DNA of 53,590 nt from positions 1 to 53,590 of the forward strand of contig CAYJXB010000002.1 in the NCBI GenBank assembly GCA_964374005.1, given 5' to 3'. A program made the position numbers and the translations under genes. The notes beneath the pieces were generated by a model. It made no database searches and had not been told where the DNA came from. It worked only from the letters and a program-made list of their open reading frames with translations. Below, in pieces: positions 20,957 through 50,630 of this stretch (position 1 is its first letter; the number at the start of each line of letters is the position of its first letter). This stretch comes from an uncultured Planctomycetia bacterium (GTDB taxonomy: Bacteria; Omnitrophota; Gorgyraeia; 2-02-FULL-51-18).

Positions 20957-20985
20957 GGGCGGGCCAAAAGCCCGCCCTTTTCCTT
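20957..20985 (+). terminator. Rho-independent terminator of the giant ORF
   Basis: GGGCGGGC-caaaa-GCCCGCCC followed by TTTTCCTTTT, 27 nt after the stop codon. Confidence 0.75.
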
Positions 20986-21001
20986 TTGTCCTCCCATTGA
21001 G

Positions 21002-21052
21002 GGGTCAGAGGGGTCAGACCCCTCAAATGCAGGGGTCTGACCCCTCTGACCC
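21002..21052. repeat. 22-bp perfect inverted repeat built from GGGGTCAGACCCC-type units
   Basis: gggtcagaggggtcagacccct - caaatgc - aggggtctgacccctctgaccc. A related unit is at 43073..43085. Confidence 0.85.
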
Positions 21053-21147: not shown

Positions 21148-21363
21148 ATGTCACAGGTGTTGGTTTCTACTAAATATCAGGTGGTGATCCCAAAAGAAGT
21201 CCGGCGAGAGCTGAACATTAAATCCGGGCAGAAGATGAGTTGTATTGCGATTAACGGCATCATTCATCTAGTGCCAGTAAGACCGATTTCTGAGATGAGA
21301 GGTTTTATTCCGAAAATCTCCCTCGAAGGGCTTCGCGAGAAAAAAGACAGGGATATTTCATGA
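21148..21363 (+). CDS. vapB: AbrB/MazE/SpoVT-family antitoxin (VapB-like)
   Basis: STKYQVVIPKEVRRELNIKSGQK swapped-hairpin motif; 71 aa; followed by a PIN gene. Confidence 0.75.
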   Translation: MSQVLVSTKYQVVIPKEVRRELNIKSGQKMSCIAINGIIHLVPVRPISEMRGFIPKISLEGLREKKDRDIS

Positions 21364-21433
21364 CCCCACCACTCTTTTGCAACGATTTTGAAAAAATCGG
21401 TCCGCATTCGCGGACCAAAGGAGTGGTGGGGTG
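21361..21433. repeat. CCCCACCAC/GTGGTGGGG junction element, copy A
   Basis: TGA-CCCCACCACTC ... internal hairpin ggtccgc-attc-gcggacc (21399-21416) ... GAGTGGTGGGG-TG. It fills the whole vapB-vapC gap. Its last G is the first base of the vapC GTG. Confidence 0.85.
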
Positions 21434-21808
21434 ATTGTGGTCGATTCCTCCGGCTGGATGCATTACTTTATGAATGGTGATCTAGCGGAAGCGTACTCCG
21501 GCTATATCAACAAGCCGGAAAACATTGCGACGCCCACGATTATTTCGTATGAAGTCTACAAGAAGATCAAGACAGAATTTAGTGAAGAAGAGGCCTATAT
21601 GGCAATGGCACAGATGCAGAAGACAAAGCTCGTTCCGTTGTCAGAATCTTTAGCCTATCATGCGGCGGATATATCTATCGAGCATAAATTGCCGATGGCT
21701 GATGCTATTATTTATTCAACAGCCGCTTATCTCAATGCCACGCTTGTGACGAGCGACGCCGATTTTAAAGGCCTTCCTAAAGTTACTTTTATTTCCGAGA
21801 AAGAATAA
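21431..21808 (+). CDS. vapC: PIN-domain ribonuclease toxin (VapC-like)
   Basis: MIVVDSSGW..., ADAIIYSTA, LVTSDADF acidic PIN motifs; GTG start. Confidence 0.8.
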   Translation: MIVVDSSGWMHYFMNGDLAEAYSGYINKPENIATPTIISYEVYKKIKTEFSEEEAYMAMAQMQKTKLVPLSESLAYHAADISIEHKLPMADAIIYSTAAYLNATLVTSDADFKGLPKVTFISEKE

Positions 21809-27123: not shown

Positions 27124-28123
27124 TCATCCCTTTTCTTTCCAAGTCGCTTTATTTTTATTACCGTTCGCTTTGCTTCCTGTTTTGGATAAAAATACCTATC
27201 ACATTGATCTTCTGACGAATGTGGGCATCTACGTGCTTTTGGCCATGGGGCTGAACGTGGTGGTGGGTTTTACCGGCCTTTTGAATCTCGGATACGCGGC
27301 GTTTTTCGCGCTTGGCGCTTACGCCTACGCGCTTCTCAATCTTCATCTTGGCTGTCCTTTTTGGATCGGGCTGCCGGTCGCGGGGGTGGTGTCTATGATC
27401 TTCGGGCTTGTCATCGGACTTCCTTCGATCCGCGTGCGCGGCGATTATCTTGCGATCACGACCCTGGGTTTCGGAGAGATCGTCCGAATCTCGCTTAATA
27501 ATTTGGATGCGTGGACCGGCGGCCCCAACGGAATCTTGGGGATTGACCGACCGCGGCTTTGGCTTCCCGCCTTCGAGGGGGGATTTCATTGGAAGCTCTG
27601 GAGTTTTTCCGTGAATCCGACGCCTTATTTTTATCTGGTTCTCGCGTTGGTGGCCGTCACGGCCACTCTTTTATTTCGAATGAGCGATTCAAAAATGGGG
27701 AGGGCGCTTGTCGCGATTCGCGAAGACGAGCTCGCGGCCTCCTGCATGGGCATTCCGACGCTAAAGATCAAACTGGTTGCCTTTGGCCTCAGTTCTTTTA
27801 TCGCGGGCATGACCGGTGCGGTGTTTGCTTCGAAGCAGACCATTGTGACACCGGATAGCTTTGATTTCGTGCTTTCAGTGCTGATCCTGGCCATGGTGGT
27901 CTTAGGGGGGATGGGGAATATCTGGGGTTCGGCGCTAGGAGCGCTTGTCCTGGGGACGCTGCCGGAATTGTTGAGGGGTTTCGCCGCTTACCGGATGCTG
28001 CTTTTCGGTCTTCTCATGATTTTGATGATGATCTTTCGTCCCCAAGGGATTCTCGGAGGGCAGTTGATCCGCCGCGAGCTCGCATCCAGACAGAAAGAGG
28101 CGGACAATGACCCCACCACCTGA
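27098..28123 (+). CDS. livM: Branched-chain amino acid ABC permease (start uncertain)
   Basis: GLNVVVGFTGLLNLGYAAFFALGAY, LAITTLGFGEI. The last 4 codons lie inside junction element copy B. Confidence 0.75.
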   Translation: MNISRIKSNHPFSFQVALFLLPFALLPVLDKNTYHIDLLTNVGIYVLLAMGLNVVVGFTGLLNLGYAAFFALGAYAYALLNLHLGCPFWIGLPVAGVVSMIFGLVIGLPSIRVRGDYLAITTLGFGEIVRISLNNLDAWTGGPNGILGIDRPRLWLPAFEGGFHWKLWSFSVNPTPYFYLVLALVAVTATLLFRMSDSKMGRALVAIREDELAASCMGIPTLKIKLVAFGLSSFIAGMTGAVFASKQTIVTPDSFDFVLSVLILAMVVLGGMGNIWGSALGALVLGTLPELLRGFAAYRMLLFGLLMILMMIFRPQGILGGQLIRRELASRQKEADNDPTT

Positions 28124-28190
28124 TTTGTCCGCCACAGGCGGACGACATGAAATGTCCGATCCTTTGGATCGAAAATCAGGTGGTGGGGTG
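28108..28190. repeat. CCCCACCAC/GTGGTGGGG junction element, copy B (inverted relative to A and C)
   Basis: TGA-CCCCACCACCTGATTT ... gtccgcc-aca-ggcggac ... AAATCAGGTGGTGGGG-TG. 16-bp terminal stem. The livM stop at 28121-23 lies in the 5-prime arm, and the livG GTG at 28188 is at the tip of the 3-prime arm. Confidence 0.85.
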
Positions 28191-28949
28191 AATCTGCTTG
28201 AGGTAAAGTCCATTTCAAAAAATTTTGGCGGAGTGACCGCTCTAAAAGATATCAGCGTGGGGGTGAACGATCGGGAGATCGTGGGCTTGATCGGCCCCAA
28301 CGGCGCTGGCAAAACGTCTTTTTTTAATTGCGTCACGGGCCTGGTACCGATCGATCGAGGGGAGATTCTCTTTTGTGGGCATCTGCGGTTGAACGGTTTG
28401 CCGCCCCATCGGATCCTTGAAGCGGGCGTTGCGCGGACATTTCAAAATTTGAGGATCTTCAAACACATGACGCTGTTGGAGAATGTCGCGGTCGGGTTTC
28501 ACGCGCGCACCCGCTCTGGACTTTGGGACGCTTTTTTGAAGACACGGTGTCTGAGGATCGAGGAGAAAAAGATTTTCACCGGCAGCATGGAGTTTTTGGC
28601 GTTTGTGGGGCTTGAGAAACATGGAAACGACACCGCCGCTTTTCTACCCTATGGCCTTCAAAAGCGCCTCGAGATCGCGCGGGCGCTGGCCTCCGGTCCG
28701 AAACTGCTTTTGCTGGATGAGCCGGTCGCCGGCATGAATCCTCAAGAGAAAAATGAGATCATCGCGCTCGTGCGCAAGATCCGCGAGAAAGGCATCGCCG
28801 TTTTATTGATCGAACATGACATGAAAGTGGTCATGCCCTTGTCGGACCGCGTGATCGTGATGGACGAGGGAGCCAAGATCGGGGAGGGGCTTCCCGATGA
28901 CATTCAGAATAACCCCCGCGTCATTCAGGCATATCTGGGGGAGGGTTAA
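28188..28949 (+). CDS. livG: Branched-chain amino acid ABC transporter ATP-binding protein
   Basis: VNLLEVKSISKNFGGVTAL, GPNGAGKTS Walker A, LPYGLQKRLEIARAL, LLLDEP. The ORF-track start at 28107 adds 27 residues that are encoded by the repeat element. Confidence 0.8.
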   Translation: MNLLEVKSISKNFGGVTALKDISVGVNDREIVGLIGPNGAGKTSFFNCVTGLVPIDRGEILFCGHLRLNGLPPHRILEAGVARTFQNLRIFKHMTLLENVAVGFHARTRSGLWDAFLKTRCLRIEEKKIFTGSMEFLAFVGLEKHGNDTAAFLPYGLQKRLEIARALASGPKLLLLDEPVAGMNPQEKNEIIALVRKIREKGIAVLLIEHDMKVVMPLSDRVIVMDEGAKIGEGLPDDIQNNPRVIQAYLGEG

Positions 28950-29909: not shown

Positions 29910-29973
29910 TTATTTTAACACAAACGAATTTTATCTCATCGCTTAAAGTTTTTTATGATAAAATATCAAAGTC

Positions 29974-30237
29974 ATGCATAAGAAACTGCGATGGGCTGTC
30001 CTGTTTTCGGCGCTCGCGTGGATCGGGTTTGTGTTCACCCTTTGCGCGTATGGTTCGGAATCCGCTGCCTCTGGCCACCGAGGCACGAATATCACGATTG
30101 ATACCAACGATCTGGATCCGATTTCGTTGAATGAGAAAACCGAAGCGAAGGAGAAAAAGCCGGTTATTTATCAAGACGGTCGCATGTCTTTCGATTTTAA
30201 CGAAAACTCCGAACCCAATATCAATACGCGTTTTTGA
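29974..30237 (+). CDS. Hypothetical secreted small protein
   Basis: N-terminal signal-like segment; its stop overlaps the next start (TGATG). Confidence 0.45.
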   Translation: MHKKLRWAVLFSALAWIGFVFTLCAYGSESAASGHRGTNITIDTNDLDPISLNEKTEAKEKKPVIYQDGRMSFDFNENSEPNINTRF

Positions 30238-31055
30238 TGATTTGGATTAGTTTATTTTTAGCCGTTGTTTTACTCGTCGATGCACCGGCATCCGTTTTTG
30301 CACAAGACCCAAGGGCGCCGATTTTGAGCGCCAAGTCCGCGATCGTGGTCAATCCCGATAACGGGCGAATTCTTTACAGTAAAAACCCGCACATGAGGCT
30401 TCCTCCCGCCTCTACGGCGAAAGTCATGACGGCTGTTCTTGCTTTGGAAAATCTGCCTTTAAATAAAAAGATCATCATCAGCTCTCGCGCCACGCGCGTT
30501 GCGCCGAGCAAAGTGAACCTGACCGAGAAGGCGCGCTACAAAGTCAGCGATTTACTAGTCGCGATGCTTGTCGCATCATCCAATGACGCGGCGGTTTCCC
30601 TTGCGGAAGCGGTCGCGGGGAGTGAGGGTGCGTTTGTGGATCTCATGAACGCGAAAGCCAAGTCTCTTGGCATGAACGATACGTATTTTGTCAATGCGAC
30701 CGGGCTCACGGAAAAACGTCACCGTCAATATTCGACGGTAACTGACCTGACTCGGCTCATGCGTCATGCGGTCAAAGACAAAAGCATTGACCGGATTCTT
30801 GGAATTCAGACGGCGACCATCCGCGGAAGCGACGGAAAACCAATTTTTATCAAAAGCCATAACAAAATGTTGTGGCGCGCGCCTCGATTCGTGAAGGGCA
30901 AAACCGGTTGGACCTTCGCCTCCCGCCATACCTTTGTCGGCACGGATTACGCCGCCGATAAACAAATCGTGTTCGCTCTCCTTAGCTCGAAAGAGCCGTG
31001 GCTGGATATCAAACGGCTCGCCGCCTTTGGGCTTCTGATGAAGCATCGCCGCTAG
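30237..31055 (+). CDS. D-alanyl-D-alanine carboxypeptidase (peptidase S11, PBP5-like)
   Basis: ASTAK (SxxK), SSND (SxN), KTGWT (KTG), signal peptide. Confidence 0.8.
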   Translation: MIWISLFLAVVLLVDAPASVFAQDPRAPILSAKSAIVVNPDNGRILYSKNPHMRLPPASTAKVMTAVLALENLPLNKKIIISSRATRVAPSKVNLTEKARYKVSDLLVAMLVASSNDAAVSLAEAVAGSEGAFVDLMNAKAKSLGMNDTYFVNATGLTEKRHRQYSTVTDLTRLMRHAVKDKSIDRILGIQTATIRGSDGKPIFIKSHNKMLWRAPRFVKGKTGWTFASRHTFVGTDYAADKQIVFALLSSKEPWLDIKRLAAFGLLMKHRR

Positions 31056-31649
31056 GTGATTTACCTCGCCTCGACCTCCCCGCGGCGCAAGGCGATTTTA
31101 AAAGGGTCCGGTATTCGGTTTCGTGCGGTGAAGCCGGATTACAACGAGGAGAAACCGGCAGGAAACCTTTCACCGTCCATGGTCGTCAAAAAACATGCGC
31201 TCGCGAAGGCGATATCCGTTGCGAAAAAAGTTAGCAGGGGGATCGTGATCGGCGCCGATACGGTCGTCTATTTTCGCGGAAAAATCATCGGCAAGCCCAA
31301 AAACCTTAAAGAGGCCGTCGGGATTCTAGGGGCGCTCGCAGGGCGCTGGCATCTTGTTTATACCGGCGTGGCTCTGCTCAAAATAAGCGGTGACGCGGTA
31401 AGAAAAAGAATCGTTTTTCACGAAAAAACCAGGGTCCATCTGAAACGCATGAACCGGAAGGCCCTCCGCGGGTATTTCAAGAAGATCCATCCCTTGGACA
31501 AGGCGGGCGCCTACGCCATTCAATCGAAGCGGGCCGGCCACGAGGCCGGCCGGCCTTTGGCCGGCATCGTGCAGGAGATCCGGGGCTCTTATTCGAACGC
31601 CATGGGGTTGCCGGTCGAAAAATTATGTGATAGACTTAAAAAATTATGA
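31056..31649 (+). CDS. maf: Maf-family nucleoside-triphosphate pyrophosphatase
   Basis: IYLASTSPRR, GADTVV, DKAGAYAIQ ... GSYSNAMGLP. It carries palindromic element copy 2. Confidence 0.85.
   Translation: MIYLASTSPRRKAILKGSGIRFRAVKPDYNEEKPAGNLSPSMVVKKHALAKAISVAKKVSRGIVIGADTVVYFRGKIIGKPKNLKEAVGILGALAGRWHLVYTGVALLKISGDAVRKRIVFHEKTRVHLKRMNRKALRGYFKKIHPLDKAGAYAIQSKRAGHEAGRPLAGIVQEIRGSYSNAMGLPVEKLCDRLKKL
31533..31565. repeat. 33-nt GC-rich palindromic element, copy 2 (in frame in maf)
   Basis: gccggccacgaggccggccggcctttggccggc = AGHEAGRPLAG. Confidence 0.9.
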
Positions 31650-31918
31650 ATCTCTTTAGAGGGGAGGGCATTGACCTTGGCTTTGTTGACATAAAAAGCC
31701 AAATAATAATATTGGCACTGTCCATTTTCTTGTTTATATTCACCGGCATTTCATCAATAAAATCAAAAAGATTGTATAACCCAAGTGGAAATGTGCCACA
31801 GGGTGATGAAGTCGTGCAAGGGAAATGGGCTCTCATTTGGGGTTGGATTTTCATTATTTTAGGGATTCTTTTAGGAATCGGATTAATTGACACCCTTTGG
31901 CAAAGGATCAACCGGTGA
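31646..31918 (+). CDS. Hypothetical small membrane protein (2 TM)
   Basis: ATGA overlap with the maf stop; two hydrophobic segments. Confidence 0.45.
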   Translation: MNLFRGEGIDLGFVDIKSQIIILALSIFLFIFTGISSIKSKRLYNPSGNVPQGDEVVQGKWALIWGWIFIILGILLGIGLIDTLWQRINR

Positions 31919-31990
31919 ATCCTTTGGCCTGGGTCGTCATTCGTTATTCTTAACGGTTTTTCTTCAAGCGTAAATTCAAGCGTACCGGTA

Positions 31991-32027
31991 TTGACAGATT
32001 ATGTACAATCATGTACACTTATGTACA
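31991..32027 (+). promoter_or_regulatory. Promoter with three phased ATGTACA operator-like repeats
   Basis: TTGACA (31991-96), 17-nt spacer, TACACT (32014-19). ATGTACA at 32001, 32011 and 32021 (10-bp phasing). AAGGAGG RBS, then ATG at 32043. Confidence 0.55.
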
Positions 32028-32042
32028 TAAGGAGGATAACCC

Positions 32043-32276
32043 ATGACAAAGACAACATTCACTGAGCTTAGAAAGCACGCCAAGACCTATTTTGATTCGG
32101 TTGAACGGGGGGCGACCATCCAAGTTTTAAGGCATGGTAAGGTGATAGCTGAGATTACCCCTCCGCATGAAAGCGCGGAAAATAAAACATGGAAAAAACC
32201 AGGACTTAAACTTAAAATTTTAGGTGTCTCGGGGAGCAAGGTTATTATCAAGGAACGCGGAGAATCTCGCTTTTGA
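32043..32276 (+). CDS. Phd/YefM-family antitoxin
   Basis: TFTELRKHAKTYFDSVERGATIQVLRHGKVIAEI; 4-nt overlap with the PIN gene. Confidence 0.7.
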   Translation: MTKTTFTELRKHAKTYFDSVERGATIQVLRHGKVIAEITPPHESAENKTWKKPGLKLKILGVSGSKVIIKERGESRF

Positions 32277-32686
32277 AATTCTACTTTGATTCCTCCGCGC
32301 TCCTAAAAAGGTACATCGCCGAAAAAGGAAGCGATCTCATTGACGGTCTTTTTCTTGAAGCGGATTCCGTGGTGGTAAGCAGCATTTGTTTACTGGAGAT
32401 CATATCTGCCCTCTCGCGGCTTCGTAGAGAAAAAAAACTGAACGCCCACCAATACAACCAATGCAAGAGGGCCGCACTAGAGGACTTCGCGGCATTTGAA
32501 GTGTGTCAATTGTCGTCCGAAGTGTTGAGAACAACCATTCATATTTTGGAACACAGCGAATTGCGAGCGGCAGATGCCCTGCACGTGGCATCTGCGATCA
32601 ATGCCAAAGTATCCCGATTTGTTTCAAGCGATGCCAAGCAGATCATCACGGCCAAAGAATTCAATTTGACGGTGGATTCGGTCTGA
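32273..32686 (+). CDS. vapC: PIN-domain toxin (VapC-like)
   Basis: MKFYFDSSALLKRY, LRAADALHVASA, FVSSD. Confidence 0.75.
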   Translation: MKFYFDSSALLKRYIAEKGSDLIDGLFLEADSVVVSSICLLEIISALSRLRREKKLNAHQYNQCKRAALEDFAAFEVCQLSSEVLRTTIHILEHSELRAADALHVASAINAKVSRFVSSDAKQIITAKEFNLTVDSV

Positions 32687-32711
32687 CACCAATATTTGGA
32701 GGTCTAACGAG

Positions 32712-33188
32712 GTGAGCGACAAAATTCCAATGACTCGTGAGGGTTATGACAAGCTGGTAAAGGAGCTTGAGTATTTGAAAACCAGCAAGCGCCGGGCGAT
32801 CGCGGAGGACATCGCAAAGGCCAGGGCATTCGGAGACTTGAAAGAAAACGCGGAATATGACGCGGCTAAAAATAACCAGGCGCATAATGAGAGGAAGATT
32901 GCCGACATCGAGCAGCGGCTTGAGCGGGTGCAGATCATTGACGAGACGAAAATCCCGAAAGACCAGGTGTTTATCGGCGCAACCGTGAAGCTTAAAGATC
33001 TTGGCACGAATGAAGAACTCAACTATTCGATCGTCCCTCAGGATGAGGCCGATTTTGACCAGGGGAAAATCTCAGTGACCTCTCCGATCGCGAAAGGGCT
33101 TCTTGGTTTAAAGGTGGGTGATACCGCTCAGATCAAAATTCCCGCCGGCACCCTTAAGTACAAAGTGCTGAAGATATCCCGCCAATAA
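32712..33188 (+). CDS. greA: Transcription elongation factor GreA
   Basis: MTREGYDKLVKELEYLK, GDLKENAEYDAAK, SVTSPIAKGLLG. Confidence 0.9.
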   Translation: MSDKIPMTREGYDKLVKELEYLKTSKRRAIAEDIAKARAFGDLKENAEYDAAKNNQAHNERKIADIEQRLERVQIIDETKIPKDQVFIGATVKLKDLGTNEELNYSIVPQDEADFDQGKISVTSPIAKGLLGLKVGDTAQIKIPAGTLKYKVLKISRQ

Positions 33189-33320
33189 ATAACCAATAAC
33201 CAAGCACCAATTTCCAAATAATAACCAATCCCCAATTACCAATAGCCAAACACGTGTTTGGAGCTTGAAATTTGAGTGTTGGAATTTATTTGGATCTTGT
33301 GATTTGGTTATTGGTTATTT
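33187..33320. repeat. 134-nt imperfect hairpin made of two inverted CCAA-rich units
   Basis: aaataaccaataaccaa (33187-203) pairs perfectly with ttggttattggttattt (33304-320). The centre is aaacacgtgttt. The right arm is the reverse complement of the unit seen at 46874 and 53451. Confidence 0.85.
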
Positions 33321-33418
33321 ATTAGAGGGATATTTTGAAATCTAAGATCAGTCTTCAAATTCCGCGGCCCCGCGCGCAAGGGACGGGAGTGATTTTTGCG
33401 GCTTTGTACAAATTAGAT

Positions 33419-33447
33419 TTGACATACATACCAAAATAAGATATATA
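33419..33447 (+). promoter_or_regulatory. Sigma70-like promoter for the Rrf2 operon
   Basis: TTGACA (33419-24), 17-nt spacer, TATATA (33442-47). Confidence 0.5.
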
Positions 33448-33482
33448 TATCCGAAATAGCATTCTTGAGCTTGGGGGTGGGT

Positions 33483-33962
33483 ATGATTTACTCGAAAACG
33501 TGCGAATATGCGATAAGGGCGCTTAGCTGTTTTGCCGGTCATAGTGAAAAAAAATGGGTGTCGGTCGAGGAGGTAAGTAGGGAAGCGGGAGTTCCTTGCC
33601 CGTATGTGGCGAAGATCTTTCAGTGCCTTGTCCAAGAAAAAATATTGAATTCGCACCGCGGGCCCGGCGGCGGGTACTCGCTTATGATAGACCCTTCCAA
33701 AATCACGCTTATAAAGGTGATTCAGGCTCTGGATGATCTGGAAAAATCCCCTTTTTCAAACTGTATTATGGGACTGCATCAGTGCGGCGATGGGAATCCT
33801 TGTCCTTTGCACCACACATGGATGAAAGCCAAGGATAAGATGCTAAAAAAGTTATCCAGCTGTTCTATTTCAGATGTGGCAGGGTTGGTGGATAAATTTG
33901 AAAGTAGTAAATGCGACCGAATCACGCTTTCCGAAAGCATGAGGGCAATATTCACGACCTAG
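33483..33962 (+). CDS. Rrf2-family (IscR/NsrR-like) transcriptional regulator
   Basis: MIYSKTCEYAIRAL, GPGGGYSL, Cys cluster C-x6-C-x5-C. Start taken at the ATG at 33483. Confidence 0.8.
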   Translation: MIYSKTCEYAIRALSCFAGHSEKKWVSVEEVSREAGVPCPYVAKIFQCLVQEKILNSHRGPGGGYSLMIDPSKITLIKVIQALDDLEKSPFSNCIMGLHQCGDGNPCPLHHTWMKAKDKMLKKLSSCSISDVAGLVDKFESSKCDRITLSESMRAIFTT

Positions 33963-35041
33963 ATTTTGAGCAAACCCCATTTATTGTTATTTGGGAGATG
34001 ACCCGCTCTTGCGCGTTAAAATGCGTTCACTGCCGCGCCGAAGCCGTCGGACAAAGAAGTCCGGATGAATTGAACGAAAAAGAAGCCTTTGAGCTTTTGT
34101 GTGAGGTACGGCGCTTCGGAAACCCTCTCATGGTTTTGACCGGAGGGGATCCGATGCGCAGGCCCGAGGTATTCAATATCGTGAGATACGGAACCGGTCT
34201 CGGGCTGCGGATGGCCGTGACTCCCAGCGCGACGGACGAGATGACCCGCGAAAAAGTGGGGAAGTTAAAGGAAGCGGGTGTCGCGCGGCTGGCAGTGAGT
34301 CTTGATGGGTCAATGCCCGAAATTCATGATGCCCTCAGGAAAGTGGAGGGTTCTTATCAGTGGACGCTTGATATTATCCGGTGGGCCAATGAGATAGAGC
34401 TTCCGGTACAGATCAACACAACTATCACAAGGCTTAATATCGAGGACGTTGACGCCCTTTGCTCGCTGATGGAATCTTTGAAGATCGTTCTTTGGTCCGT
34501 TTTCTTTTTGGTTCCTGTAGGGCGAGGAAAACTTGAAGACGAAATCCGCGGCTCGGAGTACGAACTCGTATTCAACAAAATGGTTGATCTTTCCAGAAGG
34601 TGTTCTTTTGATATCAAATCCACCGAAGCGCCCCATTACCGGCGGGTTGTTATCCAAAGAAACAAAAAAGCCCACGAGCTCCATCAAAACCTCTTTGGCG
34701 ATGGCATAGGCAGATCGACTCAAGGAGTAAACGACGGAAAAGGTTTTTTATTCATTTCTCACACGGGCGAGATTTATCCTAGCGGATTTCTTCCTGTGTC
34801 CGCAGGGAACGTCCGGAAGGATTCTTTGACGGATGTTTATCGGGAATCGTCCCTTTTCAAAAGGTTGCGAGATTATTCCCAATTGAAAGGAAAGTGCGGC
34901 GTTTGCGAATATCGGACGGTCTGCGGCGGCTCGCGTGCCCGCGCATGGAGCGTTTCGGGGGATTACATGCAGTCCGACCCTTTTTGTGTTTATGTTCCAA
35001 AGGGCTATGAGATAGACGAAAAAGAGAGAAGATTCTGGTGA
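33911..35041 (+). CDS. Radical SAM / SPASM-domain protein (AhbD/NirJ-like)
   Basis: CALKCVHC (CxxxCxxC), LTGGDP, SLDG, C-terminal Cys cluster CGVCEYRTVCGG. Confidence 0.7.
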   Translation: MRPNHAFRKHEGNIHDLDFEQTPFIVIWEMTRSCALKCVHCRAEAVGQRSPDELNEKEAFELLCEVRRFGNPLMVLTGGDPMRRPEVFNIVRYGTGLGLRMAVTPSATDEMTREKVGKLKEAGVARLAVSLDGSMPEIHDALRKVEGSYQWTLDIIRWANEIELPVQINTTITRLNIEDVDALCSLMESLKIVLWSVFFLVPVGRGKLEDEIRGSEYELVFNKMVDLSRRCSFDIKSTEAPHYRRVVIQRNKKAHELHQNLFGDGIGRSTQGVNDGKGFLFISHTGEIYPSGFLPVSAGNVRKDSLTDVYRESSLFKRLRDYSQLKGKCGVCEYRTVCGGSRARAWSVSGDYMQSDPFCVYVPKGYEIDEKERRFW

Positions 35042-36480
35042 AGCGCGTAGCGATCATAGGGGGAGGTGTTTCGGGTCTCGCCTGCGCTTTTCGACTGACA
35101 GAGTTAAAACGGAAAAATAAAAATGATTTTGAAATTTTTGTTTTTGAAGCGAAATCGCAAGCGGGAGGAACAATTGCGACTGAAAAAAGAGACGGTTTTA
35201 TTTTTGAAAAGGGACCCGATTCCTTTATTTCCGAAGATCCAGACGCTTTGAATTTCTGCAGGCGGCTGGGGATCGGTCCCAAGGTGATAAATACACAGGA
35301 GCAAAGCAGAAAAATATCGGTTGTAAGGCGTGGCAGCCTTATTGTCCTTCCTGAAGGATTTTATTTAGTAGCTCCCGGGAATCTGCGCTCATTCATTAAG
35401 ACGCCTCTTTTCTCTTTGCCTGGCAAAGTGAGGATGATTTCGGAAATTTTCATGCCGGGAAAACAGTCGCCTCAAGATGAGAGCGTGGGCGTGTTTATAA
35501 GAAGGCGGTTTGGCAGAGAGGCTTTGGAGAGAGTGGGGCAACCCATGATCGGTGGCATTTACTCGGGAGATCCCGAGAGATTAAGCGCCTGCGAAACAAT
35601 GCCGATCTTCAAGAGCTTTGAGCGTCAATACGGGAGCGTGATCCGAGGGCTGATGGCAAAGAGAAGGCGGCGGGAAGGCGCTTTTGAAGAAGCCAACGGC
35701 CCACGGCTTAGTTTGTTTTTGTCTTTTGAAGAGGGGATGGAAACATTGATTCGCGCCATGGTTTCCGGTCTGGAGCCCGGGACCTTAATGCTGGGGCAGG
35801 AGGCGACGGAACTGGCTTATGATCGGGAGAGGCCGGGCTGGCGGGTTATCACCAAAAACGGGAAGGAATGCACCGCGGATGTGGTGTGTTCGTCGATTTC
35901 CGCCAGCAACATGTGCTTGCTTTTAAAAGAAACGGCTTCGGATCTTGCCAGGAAATTGAACGAAGTGTCTTATCACTCAGTTGCGACTATTAACTTCGCC
36001 TACCGGGAGGAAGATATTGCCGACCCGCTTGCCGGTTCCGGGTTTGTCGTGCCTTCCACGGAACGAAAATCGCTCACCGCCTGCACGTTTAGCAACAGAA
36101 AGTTTAAAAACAGGGCGCCGCAGGGGCATGTGGTTTTGCGCGCGTTCGTGGGCGGGGCGTTTGGAAAGAAATATTATGAGATGGAGGATAAGGAACTTAC
36201 AGAAAAAGTTCAGAGCGACTTGGCGTCTTTATTGGGAATTAAAAAAAACCCTCTTTTTTGGTCGCTTGCCCGTTTTCCACGTCGCATGGCCCAGTATCGG
36301 GTAGGGCATAAGCTCCTCATTTCGGAAATTGAATGCGAGCTAAGCCGTTACAAAGGCCTCTTTTTGACAGGGTGCGCCTACCGTGGGTCGGGTGTTCCGA
36401 ATGCCATAAAAGACGGACAGGCGCAGGCAGAACGGATCTACGAGGAACTTAACGAGGAGTTCTCCGATGGCAGGGGTTGA
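35038..36480 (+). CDS. hemY: Protoporphyrinogen/coproporphyrinogen III oxidase (HemY/CgoX family, FAD)
   Basis: VAIIGGGVSGLA dinucleotide fold, family-like length and C-terminal GCAYRGSGVP. Confidence 0.75.
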   Translation: MKRVAIIGGGVSGLACAFRLTELKRKNKNDFEIFVFEAKSQAGGTIATEKRDGFIFEKGPDSFISEDPDALNFCRRLGIGPKVINTQEQSRKISVVRRGSLIVLPEGFYLVAPGNLRSFIKTPLFSLPGKVRMISEIFMPGKQSPQDESVGVFIRRRFGREALERVGQPMIGGIYSGDPERLSACETMPIFKSFERQYGSVIRGLMAKRRRREGAFEEANGPRLSLFLSFEEGMETLIRAMVSGLEPGTLMLGQEATELAYDRERPGWRVITKNGKECTADVVCSSISASNMCLLLKETASDLARKLNEVSYHSVATINFAYREEDIADPLAGSGFVVPSTERKSLTACTFSNRKFKNRAPQGHVVLRAFVGGAFGKKYYEMEDKELTEKVQSDLASLLGIKKNPLFWSLARFPRRMAQYRVGHKLLISEIECELSRYKGLFLTGCAYRGSGVPNAIKDGQAQAERIYEELNEEFSDGRG

Positions 36481-36516
36481 ATCGTGAACGAGGATACCTC
36501 AAGGAGGAATATTTAG

Positions 36517-37596
36517 ATGCAGATCGGTACGAAAATGATAAAAGAAAATAACTGGCCTATCATTGCTTTCTTTGCGGTCACGGCGGCGGGGGCGCTTGTG
36601 GGGGCGCCCTTGGTTGTTCACCGCTTTGGGATTTCTCTCTCGGAAATCTTGCTTTTTTTGTTTTTCGTCGCGGCCACGGGCATGAGCATCACGGTGGGTT
36701 ATCACCGGTTTTATTCTCACCGGACGTTTCAAGCCAACCCTCTCGTCGAGTTCCTTATCTTATTTTTCGGAGCGGCGGCCTTTGAGCAATCCGTCCTGGA
36801 CTGGTCATCGCAGCATCGGGATCATCATCGGTATGTTGATACCGAAAGGGACCCCTACAGCATCAAAAAAGGTTTTTGGTACGCCCATATCGGGTGGATG
36901 ACTTTGTGGAAACAACAGCCTGACTACAATAATGTTAAGGATCTTTTGAAAAACAAGCTCGTGATGCACCAGCACAATTATTACGTGGCGTGGGCCGTGA
37001 CCGCGGGGATTCTTTTTCCTCTCTTTTTGGGGTTTTTAAGCGGCCATGCGCTTGGCGCGCTTGTTTTTTCGGTTTGCGTTCGTCTGACCCTTGTTTATCA
37101 CGCCACTTTCTGCATCAACTCCGTCTGTCATGTATTTGGGAAGGCCACCTATGATATCGATGCGACGGCCAAAGACAATTGGTTGACTGCTTTTTTGACC
37201 AACGGGGAAGGGTATCATAATTTTCACCATCGATTTCCGTCGGACTACCGGAATGGCGTCCGCTGGTGTCAATGGGATCCGAGCAAGTGGATGGTTGCCT
37301 TGCTTGAAAAGACGGGGTTTGCGACGGGTTTGAAGCGGACGCCGGTCTTTCAGATATTGCGCGCCCGCCTCGCGGCGCAAAACGCTCTTGCCTCGCGGTC
37401 TCTCGGCTGGGGCAGGGCATGTTGTCCGCGTGCCACAAGAATACTCGAATGGAATTACCGTCTCCTCGAGAAGAAACTGCAGGAGTGGGAGGCGACGTCA
37501 CTTGAGTTGGAACGAAAAGCGCGCCTGGCGTTTGAAACCCGCTATCGCCGTTGGGATAGGTGGACAAGCCGGCTTTTAGCGTCCGCCGCCATTTGA
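36517..37596 (+). CDS. Acyl-CoA (delta-9-type) fatty acid desaturase
   Basis: Three His boxes HRFYSH, HRDHHRY, HNFHHRF. Confidence 0.85.
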   Translation: MQIGTKMIKENNWPIIAFFAVTAAGALVGAPLVVHRFGISLSEILLFLFFVAATGMSITVGYHRFYSHRTFQANPLVEFLILFFGAAAFEQSVLDWSSQHRDHHRYVDTERDPYSIKKGFWYAHIGWMTLWKQQPDYNNVKDLLKNKLVMHQHNYYVAWAVTAGILFPLFLGFLSGHALGALVFSVCVRLTLVYHATFCINSVCHVFGKATYDIDATAKDNWLTAFLTNGEGYHNFHHRFPSDYRNGVRWCQWDPSKWMVALLEKTGFATGLKRTPVFQILRARLAAQNALASRSLGWGRACCPRATRILEWNYRLLEKKLQEWEATSLELERKARLAFETRYRRWDRWTSRLLASAAI

Positions 37597-37621
37597 CGCG
37601 CCCGACTGGAAGGAAAATTCA

Positions 37622-38329
37622 ATGAACTGGTCCGTTTTTCCGGAAGACGTGTCGGTGTTTGGTCATAAAGTTGACGATCTTTTTTATCTGGCGTTTTGGT
37701 TGACGGCGGTCACTTTTGTTTTGGTGGTGGGGATTTTGGGTTATTTTATCTGGCGCTATCGCTCGAAAAACGCCCCTAAGCCGTATTATACGCATGGAAA
37801 AAGCTTTGGTGCGACGATGCTGACCGTGGGTCTAGCGATCGTGGTTTTTATCGTGATTGATATCAATTTGGCTGTCCATGACCATTTTGCCTGGGAAGAT
37901 TTCTTGGGAAAGCCGGCTTCGCCGGATGCCTTGCGTGTCGAGATTATGCCGGAACAATTCGTGTGGAATATTCGCTACGCGGGTGCCGACGGGAAATTTG
38001 GCACGGCCGATGATGTTGCCAATATAAATGAGTTGCATGTGCCGGTTGGCCGTGACGTCGTCGTGGCGCTCAAGTCCAAGGACGTAATTCATAGTTTTTC
38101 CCTGCCGAATTTTCGAGTTAAGCAAGACGCCGTTCCGGGAATGGTGACCTATCTAAAATTCAAAGCGGCAAAAAAAGGCTCATTTGATATTGCCTGCGCC
38201 GAACATTGCGGGTTGGCTCATTATCGTATGAGAGGAATGTTGACCGTCGAGTCGCCGGAAGTGTTCCAGTCGTGGCTTTCCGGCCAGCCGCTTCAAGGCC
38301 CAGACAACAATTGGGGATGGGTATGGTAG
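37622..38329 (+). CDS. coxB: Cytochrome c oxidase subunit II
   Basis: Two N-terminal TM segments; CuA site HSFSLP...CAEHCGLAHYRM. Confidence 0.85.
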   Translation: MNWSVFPEDVSVFGHKVDDLFYLAFWLTAVTFVLVVGILGYFIWRYRSKNAPKPYYTHGKSFGATMLTVGLAIVVFIVIDINLAVHDHFAWEDFLGKPASPDALRVEIMPEQFVWNIRYAGADGKFGTADDVANINELHVPVGRDVVVALKSKDVIHSFSLPNFRVKQDAVPGMVTYLKFKAAKKGSFDIACAEHCGLAHYRMRGMLTVESPEVFQSWLSGQPLQGPDNNWGWVW

Positions 38330-40590
38330 CATCATTTATCCGCAAGTACGTTTTCTCAACAAATCACAAAGTCATTGCTATTCAATACCTGATCACAGGC
38401 CTTCTTTTTATGGTAGTCGGCGGCGCCATGGCCTACATGATCCGCATGCAACTGGCGTATCCTTGGCAGCCGATTCCGATCCTTGGGCAAATTTTTTTGA
38501 GGGAAACAGGCGGGGTGCTGGCGCCGGAGACCTATGCACAGCTTTTTACGATGCATGGCGGCATCATGGTATTTTTCGCGGTGACCCCGATTTTGTTAGG
38601 GGCATTGGGCAATTATACAATTCCGCTTGAAATCGGCGCATCCGATATGGCGTTTACACGAATGAATATGTTGTCCTACTGGTTTTTGATCGCAGGCTCA
38701 GTCTTGGTTCTCCTTTCTTATTTGGTGCCCGGCGGAGCGGCCGGCACCGGCTGGACGCTTTACCCGCCGCTTTCATCGAGCTTAAAGATAAGTCCCGGTT
38801 GGGGAATAGATCTTTTTATCCTTGGCCTGGCGATGGATGCTGTCTCGATTTTGATGGGTGGAATCAATTACATCACGACCGTCATGCGTTGCCGAGCCCA
38901 GGGCATGAAGTGGGACCGTCTTCCCCTGACGACTTGGGGGCTCGTGTTTACATCGATTTTGAATACGCTTTGGCTGCCGCTAGTGGTTGCGGCGCTTGTC
39001 ATGGTGTTAGGGGACCGGCGGTTGGGTACGGCGTTTTTTGTGGCCGGGCCGTTGGCGCCTCACGAAGGGGGCCAAGTCCTGCTTTTTCAACATCTTTTTT
39101 GGGGGTTCGGTCATCCGGAAGTCTATATTCTCATTATGCCGGTATGGGGCATCGTGGCGGACTTACTTTCGGTGTTCTCGCGCAAGCCCGTGTTTGGTTA
39201 CCGCGCGACCGTCATTGCGATGAGTACGATTGCGATCTTAAGCGGCGTTGTTTGGGGCCATCATCTGTTTACCAGCGGGATGAACCCGCTTATCGGAAAA
39301 GTCTTTATGTTTCTAACGATTGCGGTGAGCGTGCCGACAGCGGTGCTTTTTCTGAATTGGCTGGGCACGCTGTGGAGGGGCTCGATCCGCTTTGAGGTGC
39401 CAATGCTCTTTACGCTCGGGATTGTGTTTGTCTTTGCGATCGGGGGGTTGACGGGACTTTTCCATGCGGTGCAGACCCTCGACATCTACATTCATGACAC
39501 TTACTTTGTTGTCGGCCATTTTCATTACACGCTAGCAGCCAGTGTTCTTTTCGGAGTTTTTGCGTTCGTTTATTTCTGGTTTCCGAAAATATTCGGCCGG
39601 TGGATGAATAATTCCTTGGGCAAAATTCATTTTTGGCTGACTTTTCTTATCGTGGACGTGCTTTTTTTTACGATGATGTATGTCGGTATCAACGGCCATC
39701 TGCGCCGCCTCGCTGATGCGACCACTTACGACTATCTGAAACCCATGCAGCCGCTGAATGTTTTCATGGGATATCTGACAATCGGTTTAGTATTGGCGCA
39801 GTTTCTCTTCGTCATTAATTTTTTTATTTCGCTTCTGGCAGGCCGTAAAACAGGGAATAATCCTTGGGATGCGGCGGGTCTTGCCTGGACTATCTCGTCA
39901 CCGCCACCCGAACACAATTTTCTAAAAGCGCCGGTGGTTTACACCGGCCCCCACGAATATGGAATCGTCGGCATCGCCGGACGGGACTATCGTGCGCAAG
40001 ATGAGCCGGGACAAAACTCATCGATCGCTCCTCTCAACAATGATTGGGTCACGACCCCGAAGCTAGGTATGTGGGTTTTTCTTATTTCCGAAATCATGCT
40101 TTTTACGGGCCTCATCGGAAGCTATCTCGTGCTTCGGCTTGGCAGCGCGGCTTGGCCCAACCCATCGGAGATTTTGACTATTCCGCTTTTAGGTTTAAAT
40201 ACCTTCGTTCTAATTTGCTCCAGCTTGACGCTGGCGCTTGGCGTGGACGCGGCTAAAAGCGGCAAGTCGTCTCTTGTCAGAAAATATGTGCTGTTCACGG
40301 CACTCTTAGGCCTTGCGTTTCTGTGTATCAAGGGTTTTGACTATGTTCATCTTTGGCACAAGGGTTTCACGATTTCGGCGAATCTTTTTGGCTCATGCTA
40401 TTATTTACTGACCGGATTTCACGCATTGCATGTGCTTTCGGGCGTTGTACTTTTGTTTACTCTCTGGATAGGCGCTAGAAATGACGATTATGTCTTCGCG
40501 CATGCGGAGCGTTTCGAATCCAGCGGGCTTTATTGGCATTTTATTGACATCGTGTGGGTGATTTTATTCGCGATCCTTTGTCTCTTATGA
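38323..40590 (+). CDS. coxA: Cytochrome c oxidase subunit I fused to a subunit III-like domain
   Basis: FWGFGHPEVYILI and WGHHLFTSG (subunit I); C-terminal WVFLISEIMLFTGL...GFHALHVLSGV (subunit III). The ORF-track start at 38206 overlaps coxB, so the start is taken at MVASF. Confidence 0.85.
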   Translation: MVASFIRKYVFSTNHKVIAIQYLITGLLFMVVGGAMAYMIRMQLAYPWQPIPILGQIFLRETGGVLAPETYAQLFTMHGGIMVFFAVTPILLGALGNYTIPLEIGASDMAFTRMNMLSYWFLIAGSVLVLLSYLVPGGAAGTGWTLYPPLSSSLKISPGWGIDLFILGLAMDAVSILMGGINYITTVMRCRAQGMKWDRLPLTTWGLVFTSILNTLWLPLVVAALVMVLGDRRLGTAFFVAGPLAPHEGGQVLLFQHLFWGFGHPEVYILIMPVWGIVADLLSVFSRKPVFGYRATVIAMSTIAILSGVVWGHHLFTSGMNPLIGKVFMFLTIAVSVPTAVLFLNWLGTLWRGSIRFEVPMLFTLGIVFVFAIGGLTGLFHAVQTLDIYIHDTYFVVGHFHYTLAASVLFGVFAFVYFWFPKIFGRWMNNSLGKIHFWLTFLIVDVLFFTMMYVGINGHLRRLADATTYDYLKPMQPLNVFMGYLTIGLVLAQFLFVINFFISLLAGRKTGNNPWDAAGLAWTISSPPPEHNFLKAPVVYTGPHEYGIVGIAGRDYRAQDEPGQNSSIAPLNNDWVTTPKLGMWVFLISEIMLFTGLIGSYLVLRLGSAAWPNPSEILTIPLLGLNTFVLICSSLTLALGVDAAKSGKSSLVRKYVLFTALLGLAFLCIKGFDYVHLWHKGFTISANLFGSCYYLLTGFHALHVLSGVVLLFTLWIGARNDDYVFAHAERFESSGLYWHFIDIVWVILFAILCLL

Positions 40591-40886
40591 AAAATCTTTC
40601 TTCGACTTCGCATACGAAACAATATCTGGTTGCTTTTGGATGGCTCGTGGCGCTGACCGTCTTTGAAATCGCCGTCGCGTCGATGCATTTTCCCCGGGCA
40701 GTGTTGGCGATTCTTTTGGTTGGTTCGTCGCTTGGGAAAGCAATGCTGATCGGCCTTTATTTCATGCATCTTAAATTTGAAAGCCGACTTATGTGGGTTC
40801 TTCCGGGCGTACCCGTTGTTTTTGCGATCTTGTTCGTATTCGGAATTTTCCCGGATATTGTTTATCATGCGATTCATCGGTTCTAG
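40587..40886 (+). CDS. Cytochrome c oxidase subunit IV family small membrane protein
   Basis: ATGA overlap with the preceding stop; LIGLYFMHLKFE motif; 3 TM segments. Confidence 0.65.
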   Translation: MKNLSSTSHTKQYLVAFGWLVALTVFEIAVASMHFPRAVLAILLVGSSLGKAMLIGLYFMHLKFESRLMWVLPGVPVVFAILFVFGIFPDIVYHAIHRF

Positions 40887-41139
40887 CCGCGCGGCGAAGA
40901 TAATCGTCGTCGTATTTTTACTTATCACACATAGGACCTCAAGCGCTTGGGCAGGCTTGTGTCCGATGTGTCGTCAAGCGCTCGAGCAAAGCAATCAAAA
41001 CGGTCTTCTCAGGGGTTTTTATCTCAGTATTCTTCTTATCGCCGGAATGCCACTCCTGATTTTTTTGCTTCTAGGGCTTTATTTTCTTTTTACTTCAACT
41101 AGAAAAACAGCGCATGGAAATTCACAAGACTCCGTTTGA
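40867..41139 (+). CDS. Hypothetical membrane protein with CPMC motif
   Basis: Signal-like N-terminus, CPMC, C-terminal TM segment. Start at MRFIGSS. Confidence 0.4.
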   Translation: MRFIGSSRAAKIIVVVFLLITHRTSSAWAGLCPMCRQALEQSNQNGLLRGFYLSILLIAGMPLLIFLLLGLYFLFTSTRKTAHGNSQDSV

Positions 41140-41208
41140 GACAACGCAGGAATTTCTGTACTGCCTGTTCAAGCGGAATTGAAGTATGCCGTGGTTCGTC
41201 GAGAGAGG

Positions 41209-41664
41209 TCAGTCCAAAAATGGCTCTACCCATTTCCTAAAAAGTTTAAGTCCATCCGCAGGCACAACAATTGGAAAATCGACCAATGACTCCACGCCAG
41301 GAAGCATGAAGTCCCGCGTGTTCCATGTGACAAACGCCGAAACCTTAGCCAAATGAGCGGCACACAGTATCGTGGCATCGCCTTTGCGAAGCTTTTGTAA
41401 GAACGGTTTTGTCTGCTCGGCTGTCGGATTGGGGGCGATTTCGGGGCCGAGGTCCTTCCAAAGCTTTCGACTCACGTGAATCAGATCAGGAAATTTTGTG
41501 GCAAGAACTCTATCAGATTCGGTTATCACTTCTTCTGACGCTACCATCGTAACGGCTTCTGCTTCCACCAAACGCGCAAGTTCTCCTGCGGCGCCTTCCG
41601 GAGAAAGAAGCGCCGCAATATAAACGCTAGTATCAAAAAAGAGCCGGTATCTCGGAACAGGCAT
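41209..41664 (-). CDS. PIN-domain toxin
   Basis: YRLFFDTSVYIAAL, paired with an upstream AbrB-type antitoxin gene. Confidence 0.7.
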   Translation of the reverse strand: MPVPRYRLFFDTSVYIAALLSPEGAAGELARLVEAEAVTMVASEEVITESDRVLATKFPDLIHVSRKLWKDLGPEIAPNPTAEQTKPFLQKLRKGDATILCAAHLAKVSAFVTWNTRDFMLPGVESLVDFPIVVPADGLKLFRKWVEPFLD

Positions 41665-41687
41665 TTATGGTTCGGCTTTGCTCACCA

Positions 41688-41930
41688 CTAGAAATCTTTG
41701 TGTCGGATTTTTTTTAAATCCTTCAAAAGGTCATCCAGGGTTATTCCCTTTTCCTTGGCCGCTTCCGAAAACTTCGCCGAGATGGATTCAAAAGTAGATA
41801 CCTTCGGGGTCAGAAGAATCCCATTGCCCACTTTAGTGACAGATAACACGGCATTTTTAGATAAATGCAACGACTCTCGAATATCCGATGGGATAGTGAC
41901 CTGTCCTTTTTCTCTCATTCTTGTAACCAT
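41688..41930 (-). CDS. AbrB/MazE/SpoVT-family antitoxin
   Basis: EKGQVTIPSDIRESLHLSKN. Confidence 0.7.
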   Translation of the reverse strand: MVTRMREKGQVTIPSDIRESLHLSKNAVLSVTKVGNGILLTPKVSTFESISAKFSEAAKEKGITLDDLLKDLKKIRHKDF

Positions 41931-42075
41931 AAATTCCCTCCTATTTTCCTACTAGTTCCAACTTTCCTACTAAAGGATACCATATAGAGCGAGGTTTTTC
42001 AAGTACCAAGAAAAATGCCCAGGCAGGCGTGCCTCCGCAGGAATAATCCTTGTTGACTTGGATGTGATCGGGCAA

Positions 42076-46873: not shown

Positions 46874-47007
46874 GAATAACCAATGACCAAATTACAAGGT
46901 CCAAATAAGTTCCAATACCCAAATTACAAGCTCCAAACTAGTGTTTGGTTCTTGGGTTTTGGTTTTTGGTGCTTATTTGGAAATTGGTGCTCGGGATTTG
47001 TGATTTA
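46874..47007. repeat. CCAA-rich unit plus inverted TTGG-rich partner (imperfect hairpin)
   Basis: The left arm gaataaccaatgaccaaattacaaggtccaaataag... closely matches 53451..53514. The centre is ccaaac-tag-tgtttgg. It fills the gap between the stop at 46868 and the mgtE ATG at 47014. Confidence 0.8.
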
Positions 47008-50558: not shown

Positions 50559-50630
50559 CCCCACCACCTGTTTTCTACGATTGCTCCAAGCAATCGGTCC
50601 GCTTTGCGGACAAAACAAGTGGTGGGGTGA
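50547..50630. repeat. CCCCACCAC/GTGGTGGGG junction element, copy C, flanked by 12-nt direct repeats
   Basis: GTGGTGGGGTGA (50547-558) - CCCCACCACCTGTTTT ... ggtccgc-ttt-gcggac ... AAAACAA - GTGGTGGGGTGA (50619-630). Confidence 0.85.

Follow-up and report, generated by a model that had tools for sequence, protein, structure and literature searches.

Three short repeats in a 53,590-nucleotide stretch of DNA from an uncultured Planctomycetia bacterium placed by GTDB in the Omnitrophota (contig CAYJXB010000002.1; the whole stretch is called the window) are very probably copies of a non-autonomous DNA transposon, a MITE (a transposable element of the miniature inverted-repeat kind), that inserts preferentially at RTGA sequences (R, A or G) in a manner nearly neutral for translation. 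The element is mobile, duplicates and prefers a defined target, has empty orthologous sites, is enriched at gene boundaries, and is biased in reading frame and length. How these properties would combine to spare the interrupted genes is considered below.

Copy A (21364-21431, + strand, 68 nt) lies between vapB, encoding a MazE-type antitoxin, and vapC, encoding a PIN toxin. Copy B (28111-28188, - strand, 78 nt) occupies the junction between livM (LivM-type permease) and livG (LivG-type ATPase), and copy C (50559-50627, + strand, 69 nt) lies between a PMT/GT39 glycosyltransferase gene and pfkB (PfkB kinase); these neighbors were assigned with Pfam. All three have perfect 9-nt ends, 5' CCCCACCAC and 3' GTGGTGGGG, and a TGA on either side (21361-21363 and 21432-21434 for A, 28108-28110 and 28189-28191 for B, 50556-50558 and 50628-50630 for C). 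The 9-mers match the window exactly at eight places on both strands, six of which are the three inverted pairs of A, B and C. A GTGGTGGGG match at 37724, inside a coding sequence and without a partner, was rejected as a chance occurrence. The unit runs collinearly in copies A and C and is inverted in B, which aligns best in reverse complement; an internal GTCCGC/GCGGAC hairpin is common to all three. RNA folding of the junctions gave very stable structures of -46 (A), -57 (B) and -58 (C) kcal/mol (z-scores -6.5, -8.3 and -7.4), a stability that 0 of 200 shuffles matched for each copy. In the predicted fold, a terminal stem of 16-18 bp encloses two (A and C) or three (B) short internal hairpins, and in the minimum-energy structure the G-rich 3' arm is paired, including GGUGGUGGGG and the G of the GTG codon that follows. 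A preliminary description of the window had recognized the repeats at these positions, with the same ends, TGA flanks, relative orientation and internal hairpin, and had proposed a stem that covers the start codon; the stem length it gave, 11-16 bp, falls short of the folded one.

Orthologous loci were used to compare filled and empty sites. The Omnitrophota LivG orthologs lack the 27-residue N-terminal extension encoded across copy B, the only exception being P0001, which is 93% identical to the LivG of the window. The livM-livG junction is empty in loci L239, L240 and L241, where it reads ...GGAGGCGGAAG-ATG-GCC-CTG-CTT-GAG..., whereas the junction in the window reads ...AGAGGCGGACA-ATGA-(element)-TGA-ATCTGCTTGAG.... 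Thus, copy B lies within the ATGA at which livG starts, and the TGA has been duplicated. The same site is filled in L195 (metagenome contig Ga0080064_1000077, ~90% identical to the window). In the closest relative, L243 (PfkB 88% identical), PMT and pfkB simply overlap at ATGA and no element is present. At the same ATGA, L244, which belongs to another Omnitrophota lineage, carries a different copy (ends, CCCCACCCCCTG), and its relative L245 is empty. Since the window and L244 carry different copies while L243 and L245 are empty, this junction has been hit at least two times independently. At the empty livM-livG and PMT-pfkB sites the start codon lies exactly at the insertion point. In the window, a solo GTGGTGGGG arm (50547-50555, + strand) stands directly 5' of copy C; it has AAAGGAG just 5' of it, is like the right end of copy A, and codes for the PMT C-terminus (..KKEVVG-stop). 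The stretch AAAGGAGGTGGTGGGG preceding copy C is absent from the empty site of L243, and the solo arm may be a remnant of an older copy at this site.

Filled and empty pairs also exist inside genes. A nuoJ-like gene has an 84-nt in-frame insertion in L133 and an empty homolog in L231, and another gene carries an in-frame copy in both L069 and L007 with an empty homolog in L234. In L154, copies lie in frame in MobA and MoeA; the MobA domain scores 106 bits with the 27 inserted residues and 121 bits once they are removed. A further candidate pair, L131 and L089, was dropped because 15 unrelated nucleotides replace the element. Four pfkB orthologs (P0122, P0123, P0132 and P0135; 63-67% identical to that of the window) have element-derived N-terminal extensions at varying stages of decay (MTPPPVVNDSKQ...GGGV, MTPSPNFYDYEA...RDGV and MANPCVARCMGQRKKRGGGV), all still open from an upstream ATG. 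The element load is very high in some lineages. Within ~2.3 kb of one GC-rich organism (L154 7406-9729, also L235), in-frame copies lie at the MobA start, in the MobA nucleotide-binding loop and in MoeA; the loop insertion reads GGMSSRM-(27 aa)-GRDKALL.

A scan for CCCCACCAC-N38-68-GTGGTGGGG in one genome per species gave at least 118 loci. Most of these were rejected as chance matches in high-GC Actinomycetota and similar genomes, having neither an extended stem nor a duplication, and about 20 among the matches listed were accepted as relatives with extended stems. A metagenome scan with the commonest arm variant, CCCCACCACCTG...CAGGTGGTGGGG, gave at least 120 loci and 117 non-redundant copies among the matches listed. 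The relatives come from metagenome-assembled genomes (MAGs) labeled Omnitrophota and Elusimicrobiota, two labeled Planctomycetia and two labeled Deltaproteobacteria, as well as from many metagenomes. Among them, L019 shares 91% identity with B, L017 88% with C and L073 80% with A. Over the window and more than 130 related copies, the inverted ends are perfect for 9-12 nt, CCCCACCAC(CTG)...(CAG)GTGGTGGGG, and extend into stems of 12-17 bp. Family members are 57-86 nt long, too small to encode a transposase.

Identical 3-nt flanks were present in 82 of the 117 metagenome copies among the matches listed (70%), where 1 in 64 is expected by chance. The duplicated triplet was TGA/TCA in 53, TGG/CCA in 14, CGA/TCG in 6, TAA/TTA in 3, and one of a few others in the rest. 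The base 5' of the TGA duplication was A in 31 copies, G in 17, T in 5 and C in 0, against a near-uniform control, and the target logo reads R-T-G-R, G being weakly enriched upstream and C at +2 to +4. R at -1 occurs in 61 of 77 sites and its mirror image, Y at +1, in 44 of 77, an asymmetry which indicates that gene context (start codons) acts on top of any symmetric preference of the enzyme. The internal insertions checked by sequence (L133, the MobA copy of L154, and L069) are also at ATGG or GTGG, so that the choice of RTGR as a target is, in part at least, an intrinsic preference.

The family is modular, a terminal stem of 12-17 bp enclosing one to three GC hairpins of 5-8 bp with 3-nt loops that are commonly GAA, TTC, TTT or AAA. 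Among 24 three-hairpin copies that were aligned, double compensatory changes affect 10 of the 23 consensus pairs; in the stem extension, for instance, UA becomes CG, and the base of the CCGCC/GGCGG hairpin (hairpin 3) has UA, CG and GC. These changes show that the family maintains its pairing, under a constraint that may act on DNA (transposition or a cruciform) or on RNA. A search of Rfam 15 gave no match at the gathering threshold; permissive matches were hairpins of animal microRNA precursors, which scored far under the gathering cutoffs and were set aside.

The 0.73 Mb of family-positive loci contain 168 short paired elements. Candidate parents in these loci, inverted arm pairs with matching 3-nt flanks and unpaired arms, were in fact separate MITEs, copies nested in or abutting one another, or non-coding variants of 137-325 bp. 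Abutting or nested copies and longer variants occur at L143 823-980, L152 1008-1366, L171 5057-5190, L215 about 1528-1610, L172 704-1028 and L199 1997-2322, and in L238. Some abutting pairs have a single TGA...TGA around the pair and no TGA between the units, and the 137-325 bp variants carry TCCCACCACCTG...CAGGTGGTGGGA ends.

To classify insertion sites, the empty site was reconstructed for the 82 perfectly duplicated copies and compared with control sites that have the same trinucleotide in the same loci. Ten copies had entered a stop/start overlap, 17 a start codon only, 17 a stop codon only and 8 the inside of a long open reading frame (ORF), and 30 were unclassified. A start and/or stop codon was the target for 54% of copies versus 8% of control sites, a 7-fold enrichment at gene boundaries. 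Stop/start overlaps account for 12% versus 0.2% of the controls, and ORF interiors are depleted (10% versus 29%). Earlier start-site classifiers were dropped: one allowing an upstream open frame of ≤60 nt under-called in GC-rich contigs (18 of 117), and a lenient version had a 16% control rate. The copies in L017, L038 and L092 lie in the loops of intergenic hairpins. The preliminary description had proposed a wider search with tabulated contexts and had offered, as its second possibility, a MITE that strongly prefers overlapping GTGA junctions. The 3-nt duplications, the two orientations, the empty orthologous sites, the boundary enrichment and the hundreds of copies in at least two phyla all favor that possibility, with NTGA as the junction; the concentration on start and stop codons is borne out, but other copies are in ORFs and intergenic hairpins.

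Each junction in the window retains its original start codon and native Shine-Dalgarno (SD) sequence directly 5' of the element (all coordinates on the + strand). At copy A, the left TGA (21361-21363) is the vapB stop, where the vapB ORF ends, and overlaps the original vapC ATG (21360-21362). From this ATG, which forms an ATGA overlap with vapB, a mini-ORF of 24 codons (21360-21434; MTPPLFCNDFEKIGPHSRTKGVVG-stop) runs across the element to the right TGA (21432-21434). That TGA overlaps a new GTG (21431-21433) made of the last G of the element and the TG that follows. The new GTG opens the vapC ORF (21431-21808) and is its only in-frame start, the original ATG being out of frame; position 1 of the PIN profile aligns with residue 2 of VapC read from this GTG. 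At copy B, the original livG ATG (28107-28109) is in frame through the element for 81 nt, or 27 codons (MTPPPDLSATGGRHEMSDPLDRKSGGG-VNLLEV). The left TGA belongs to the livG ATGA, and livM now stops inside the left arm (28121-28123). The new GTG (28188-28190) is at the position where LivG orthologs of 253-254 residues begin (N-terminus M-x-LLEV). At copy C, the original pfkB GTG (50555-50557) overlaps the PMT stop TGA (50556-50558) and is in frame through the element for 72 nt, or 24 codons; the product reads VTPPPVFYDCSKQSVRFADKTSGG-VIATITLNPSID, with VIATIT directly after VTPPPVFYDCSKQSVRFADKTSGG. Here the new GTG (50627-50629) is formed by the last G of the element and the right TGA (50628-50630), and PfkB orthologs have 309 residues and begin with MIATITLNPSID. 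By comparison of homolog lengths, both the 27-residue LivG extension and the 24-residue PfkB extension are lineage specific. AGGUGGU in the arm, 3 nt 5' of the GTG, is predicted to pair with the canonical anti-SD at -11.4 kcal/mol, against -7.5 for the native livG SD and -5.4 for that of vapC.

Several statements of the preliminary description can be adjusted accordingly. As to where the upstream gene stops, which it placed at or within the 5' arm, the flanking TGA is the stop in A and C but not in B. That the terminal G and the following TG make a GTG at the N-terminus expected from homologs agrees with the PIN profile and with the LivG and PfkB orthologs. That the element supplies the downstream start is true of the structure and necessary for A; for B and C it is probably not the sole route of expression.

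Frame and length were examined over the 117 metagenome copies among the matches listed and over 41 sites of the start type that are followed by a long ORF (A and C of the window and 39 metagenome copies). Family-wide, lengths are 0 mod 3 in 74 copies, 1 mod 3 in 13 and 2 mod 3 in 30. At start-type sites, the original start leads without interruption into the gene in 24 of the 25 copies of 0 mod 3. All 14 copies of 2 mod 3 have a mini-ORF that crosses the whole element and has as its stop precisely the right TGA, which overlaps the new GTG; a length of 1 mod 3 is seen in only 2 copies. Stops are absent from the frame that begins at the original start (xTG-ACC-CCA-CCA-CCT...) in 89% of copy orientations versus 62% of shuffled interiors, and the two other frames are stop-free in 65-70%. 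With the entry frame biased against stops in this way, translation through the element is likely.

We propose the following mechanism. Insertion duplicates 3 bp, preferentially at RTGA, which is the sequence of overlapping stop/start junctions and of start codons with A or G as the next base. The upstream stop is kept by the left TGA, as in A and C, or the upstream gene stops a few codons later inside the arm, as in B. The terminal G and the duplicated TG then remake a GTG start, an outcome that the perfect inverted repeat of the ends makes the same for both orientations, and AGGUGGU of the arm could act as its SD-like site. Keeping the entry frame stop-free and lengths biased to 0 or 2 mod 3 would provide two outcomes: (i) with 0 mod 3, the original start would read into the gene and add 20-29 N-terminal residues (B and C), and (ii) with 2 mod 3, a mini-ORF would end on the TGA over the new GTG, resulting in -4 coupling (A). 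Ribosomes from the original start may melt the hairpin and either continue into the gene or stop on GTGA and reinitiate, and purifying selection together with target preference could produce the distribution at gene boundaries. Burial of the SD and GTG in the hairpin, which could make the downstream gene dependent on upstream ribosomes, is a plausible side effect.

A number of points weigh against this proposal. A search for inverted pairs 150-4000 bp apart in the 0.73 Mb of family-positive loci found no autonomous element with matching ends and no transposase. ORF context in the site census comes from stop-to-stop ORF heuristics on short metagenome contigs rather than from a gene caller, and the 30 unclassified copies out of 82 are on short contigs or at intergenic sites. 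As the copies lack phylogenetic independence, the significance of the frame and length statistics is overstated. The bias in length extends to the whole family, being 56:11:20 (0, 1 and 2 mod 3) away from start sites, and could in part reflect the lengths of master copies instead of site-by-site selection. Finally, the hairpin is a predicted fold, and either start may serve in B and C.

The alternative that survives best accepts the same MITE and holds that the arm-supplied GTG and arm SD are functional at all three junctions, so that the original starts are dead and the extensions of 24-27 residues are artifacts of annotation. Copy A must use its GTG, every GTG coincides with the N-termini of homologs, and the SD-like AGGUGGU is suitably spaced. 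Against this, the GTG and its SD lie within the predicted 16-18 bp stem, and the entry frame is preferentially stop-free, being open at 24 of 25 in-frame start sites. The decayed copies at the pfkB starts of P0132 and P0123 also keep an open frame from an upstream ATG, although gene callers favor long ORFs. We consider this alternative possible but unlikely, and the earlier statement that the extra LivG and PfkB residues are spurious is not established.

Adoption of the element by the host after insertion, as an RNase III site, an mRNA stabilizer, a boundary for segmental decay or a protein-binding cruciform, would explain the conserved multi-hairpin architecture. The hairpins are kept paired in copies of widely differing sequence, as the compensated pairs attest, the same 3-nt loops recur, and the internal hairpins have a weak bias in orientation relative to the gene (12 versus 4). 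This bias is not significant, however, and palindromy can persist through the needs of transposition or templated quasi-palindrome repair with no RNA function required. With copies in many unrelated contexts and no Rfam family among their matches, such adoption is improbable.

The preliminary description had favored a third explanation, a host-evolved RNA hairpin whose purpose is enforced translational coupling, the stem sequestering SD and GTG until ribosomes terminate upstream. All three copies in the window are at stop/start junctions, the 3' arm with the G of GTG is fully paired in the minimum-energy folds, and the arm pairs with the anti-SD at least as well as the native SDs do. As an origin for the element, however, such a device is quite improbable. 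The close orthologs examined lack it, it has target duplications and both orientations, and related copies are in ORFs, at lone stop codons and in intergenic hairpins. In addition, a 4-nt overlap coupled the genes at these junctions even before the element arrived, so that nothing new would have been gained. A palindromic element of the REP/RAYT type or derived from IS200/IS605 (PATE), or an integron attC site, moved as single-stranded hairpin DNA, would likewise be a short, strongly hairpin-forming repeat beside gene ends, but members of those classes insert without a target duplication and carry asymmetric or other conserved ends (GTAG in REP, RYYYAAC/GTTRRRY in attC), so that this origin is already contradicted by the perfect inverted-repeat ends and 3-nt duplications in 70% of copies here and is extremely improbable.

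An insertion by a MITE thus remains the preferred explanation. The family has the terminal inverted repeats, fixed-length target duplication, small size, dispersed copies and filled and empty sites by which MITEs are recognized. Its closest parallel in behavior is the mycobacterial interspersed repetitive unit (MIRU). A 2025 review (PMC12548453, citing Supply et al. 1997) and PMC3184786 describe MIRUs as mobile repeats that enter start codons and carry an ORF coupled to the gene at -4, minimizing the impact on expression. MIRUs are likewise short (40-100 bp) GC-rich repeats in operons with filled and empty sites and short direct repeats, and start-codon insertion with a -4 coupled ORF is found here in copy A and in 14 of 14 start-site copies of 2 mod 3. 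In contrast to MIRUs, the element has long perfect terminal inverted repeats, a 3-nt rather than a 4-nt duplication, the ability to work in both orientations, and mostly copies of the in-frame fusion type. It is also unrelated in sequence and taxon (its hosts are Omnitrophota and Elusimicrobiota), and usually one copy occupies a site, as do all those of the window, with occasional abutting pairs elsewhere (L143 and L152), whereas MIRUs form variable-number tandem repeats. The element behaves like a MIRU and is not a member of the MIRU family.

Colonization of ORFs in frame is known for the Rickettsia palindromic elements (RPEs), BRE, ERIC and the 107-bp form of Correia/NEMIS (PMC10969869, PMC3184786, PMC2229807). 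Like RPEs, the element is a palindromic mobile repeat tolerated in frame or as a 5' or 3' extension, here in the nuoJ-like gene, MobA, MoeA, the gene shared by L069 and L007, and the N-termini of LivG and PfkB. RPEs are about 100-150 bp and specific to Rickettsia, so that size, sequence and hosts differ, a distinction drawn from their descriptions and not from a comparison of consensus sequences; targeting of start or stop codons, or regeneration of a start, is not part of those descriptions. The Neisseria REP2 and Borrelia upstream inverted repeats donate a ribosome-binding site and start codon that become fused to host ORFs (PMC3184786). REP2 differs in being a module of promoter, 5' untranslated region and ATG without terminal inverted repeats or a target-site duplication, and its start is internal, whereas here the start consists of the terminal base and the duplicated target.

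Classical MITEs such as Correia/NEMIS, RUP and MITEAba12 share with the element their terminal inverted repeats, target duplication, small size, many dispersed copies and long terminal RNA stem. They differ in being mostly intergenic, with TA or longer duplications and a known or suspected parent insertion sequence (IS). Among IS families, 3-bp duplications are made by IS3, IS30, IS5/IS1031 and IS982. A 2024 review of prokaryotic MITEs nowhere mentions start or stop codons, and a full-text literature search combining Omnitrophota and MITE returned nothing relevant. We regard the element as an undescribed family that combines known behaviors and not as a new kind of element.

A wider reading can be offered, tentatively and with more doubt than the MITE assignment itself. 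The terminal repeat may have been molded to carry both a portable ribosome-binding site and the initial base of a start codon. Combined with an intrinsic RTGA preference, this would make a translation-transparent transposon specialized for start and stop codons and for ORFs in the streamlined genomes of at least two phyla, one that has hit the PMT-pfkB junction repeatedly and independently; its hairpin may add an obligatory dependence on upstream translation, a new layer of operon coupling. The family is in any case a clear example, outside mycobacteria and Rickettsia, of selfish DNA whose ends are built for survivable insertion at the constrained sites of compact genomes (start and stop codons, operon junctions and ORFs). 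The independent insertions at one junction in different lineages suggest a usable target rule, RTGA with weak GC-symmetric flanks. The copies are also natural constructs for comparing termination-reinitiation with read-through across a very stable hairpin. For annotation, the elements add MTPPP...GGGV extensions of 20-29 residues, or internal inserts, to LivG, PfkB, MobA, MoeA and NuoJ in Omnitrophota and Elusimicrobiota MAGs and shift the called starts, and recognizing the family would clean these gene models.

Other features of the window were noted in passing. L195 and the window are collinear on either side of a region that is ~2.2 kb in L195 (6588-8836) where the window has ~12 kb (29960-42094), a large indel or replacement between close relatives. 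An ORF of 6970 codons (18-20930, + strand) looks like a chain of whole metabolic enzymes. Its Pfam matches are TIM, isocitrate lyase, enoyl-CoA hydratase, malate synthase, PGM/PMM, cupin-type GPI, class V FBPase, histidine phosphatase, PEPCK-ATP and two CsrA, and 21 GAR(L/A) linkers connect the segments, most of them GARLA and most specified by a near-invariant 15-nt motif, GGCGCGCGGCTGGCG. A literature search for a comparable giant enzyme-chain ORF found none, and this ORF looks much stranger than the MITE.

A second palindromic element, AT-rich, is present in two copies (33171-33336 and 46895-46986); one arm is composed of ~8-nt units containing CCAA (e.g., aataaccaataaccaagcaccaatttccaaataataaccaat) and the other is its imperfect complement. 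Just 3' of the stop of the giant ORF, the region 20958-21052 contains a terminator-like hairpin, GGGCGGGCC-AAAA-GCCCGCCC, followed by the T-rich CTTTTCCTTTT and then by a perfect 22-nt inverted repeat, GGGTCAGAGGGGTCAGACCCCT / AGGGGTCTGACCCCTCTGACCC. In the metagenome loci L170, L171, L185 and L188, palindromes of a similar kind, GGGGTCA/TGACCCC, serve the MITE as targets for insertion.

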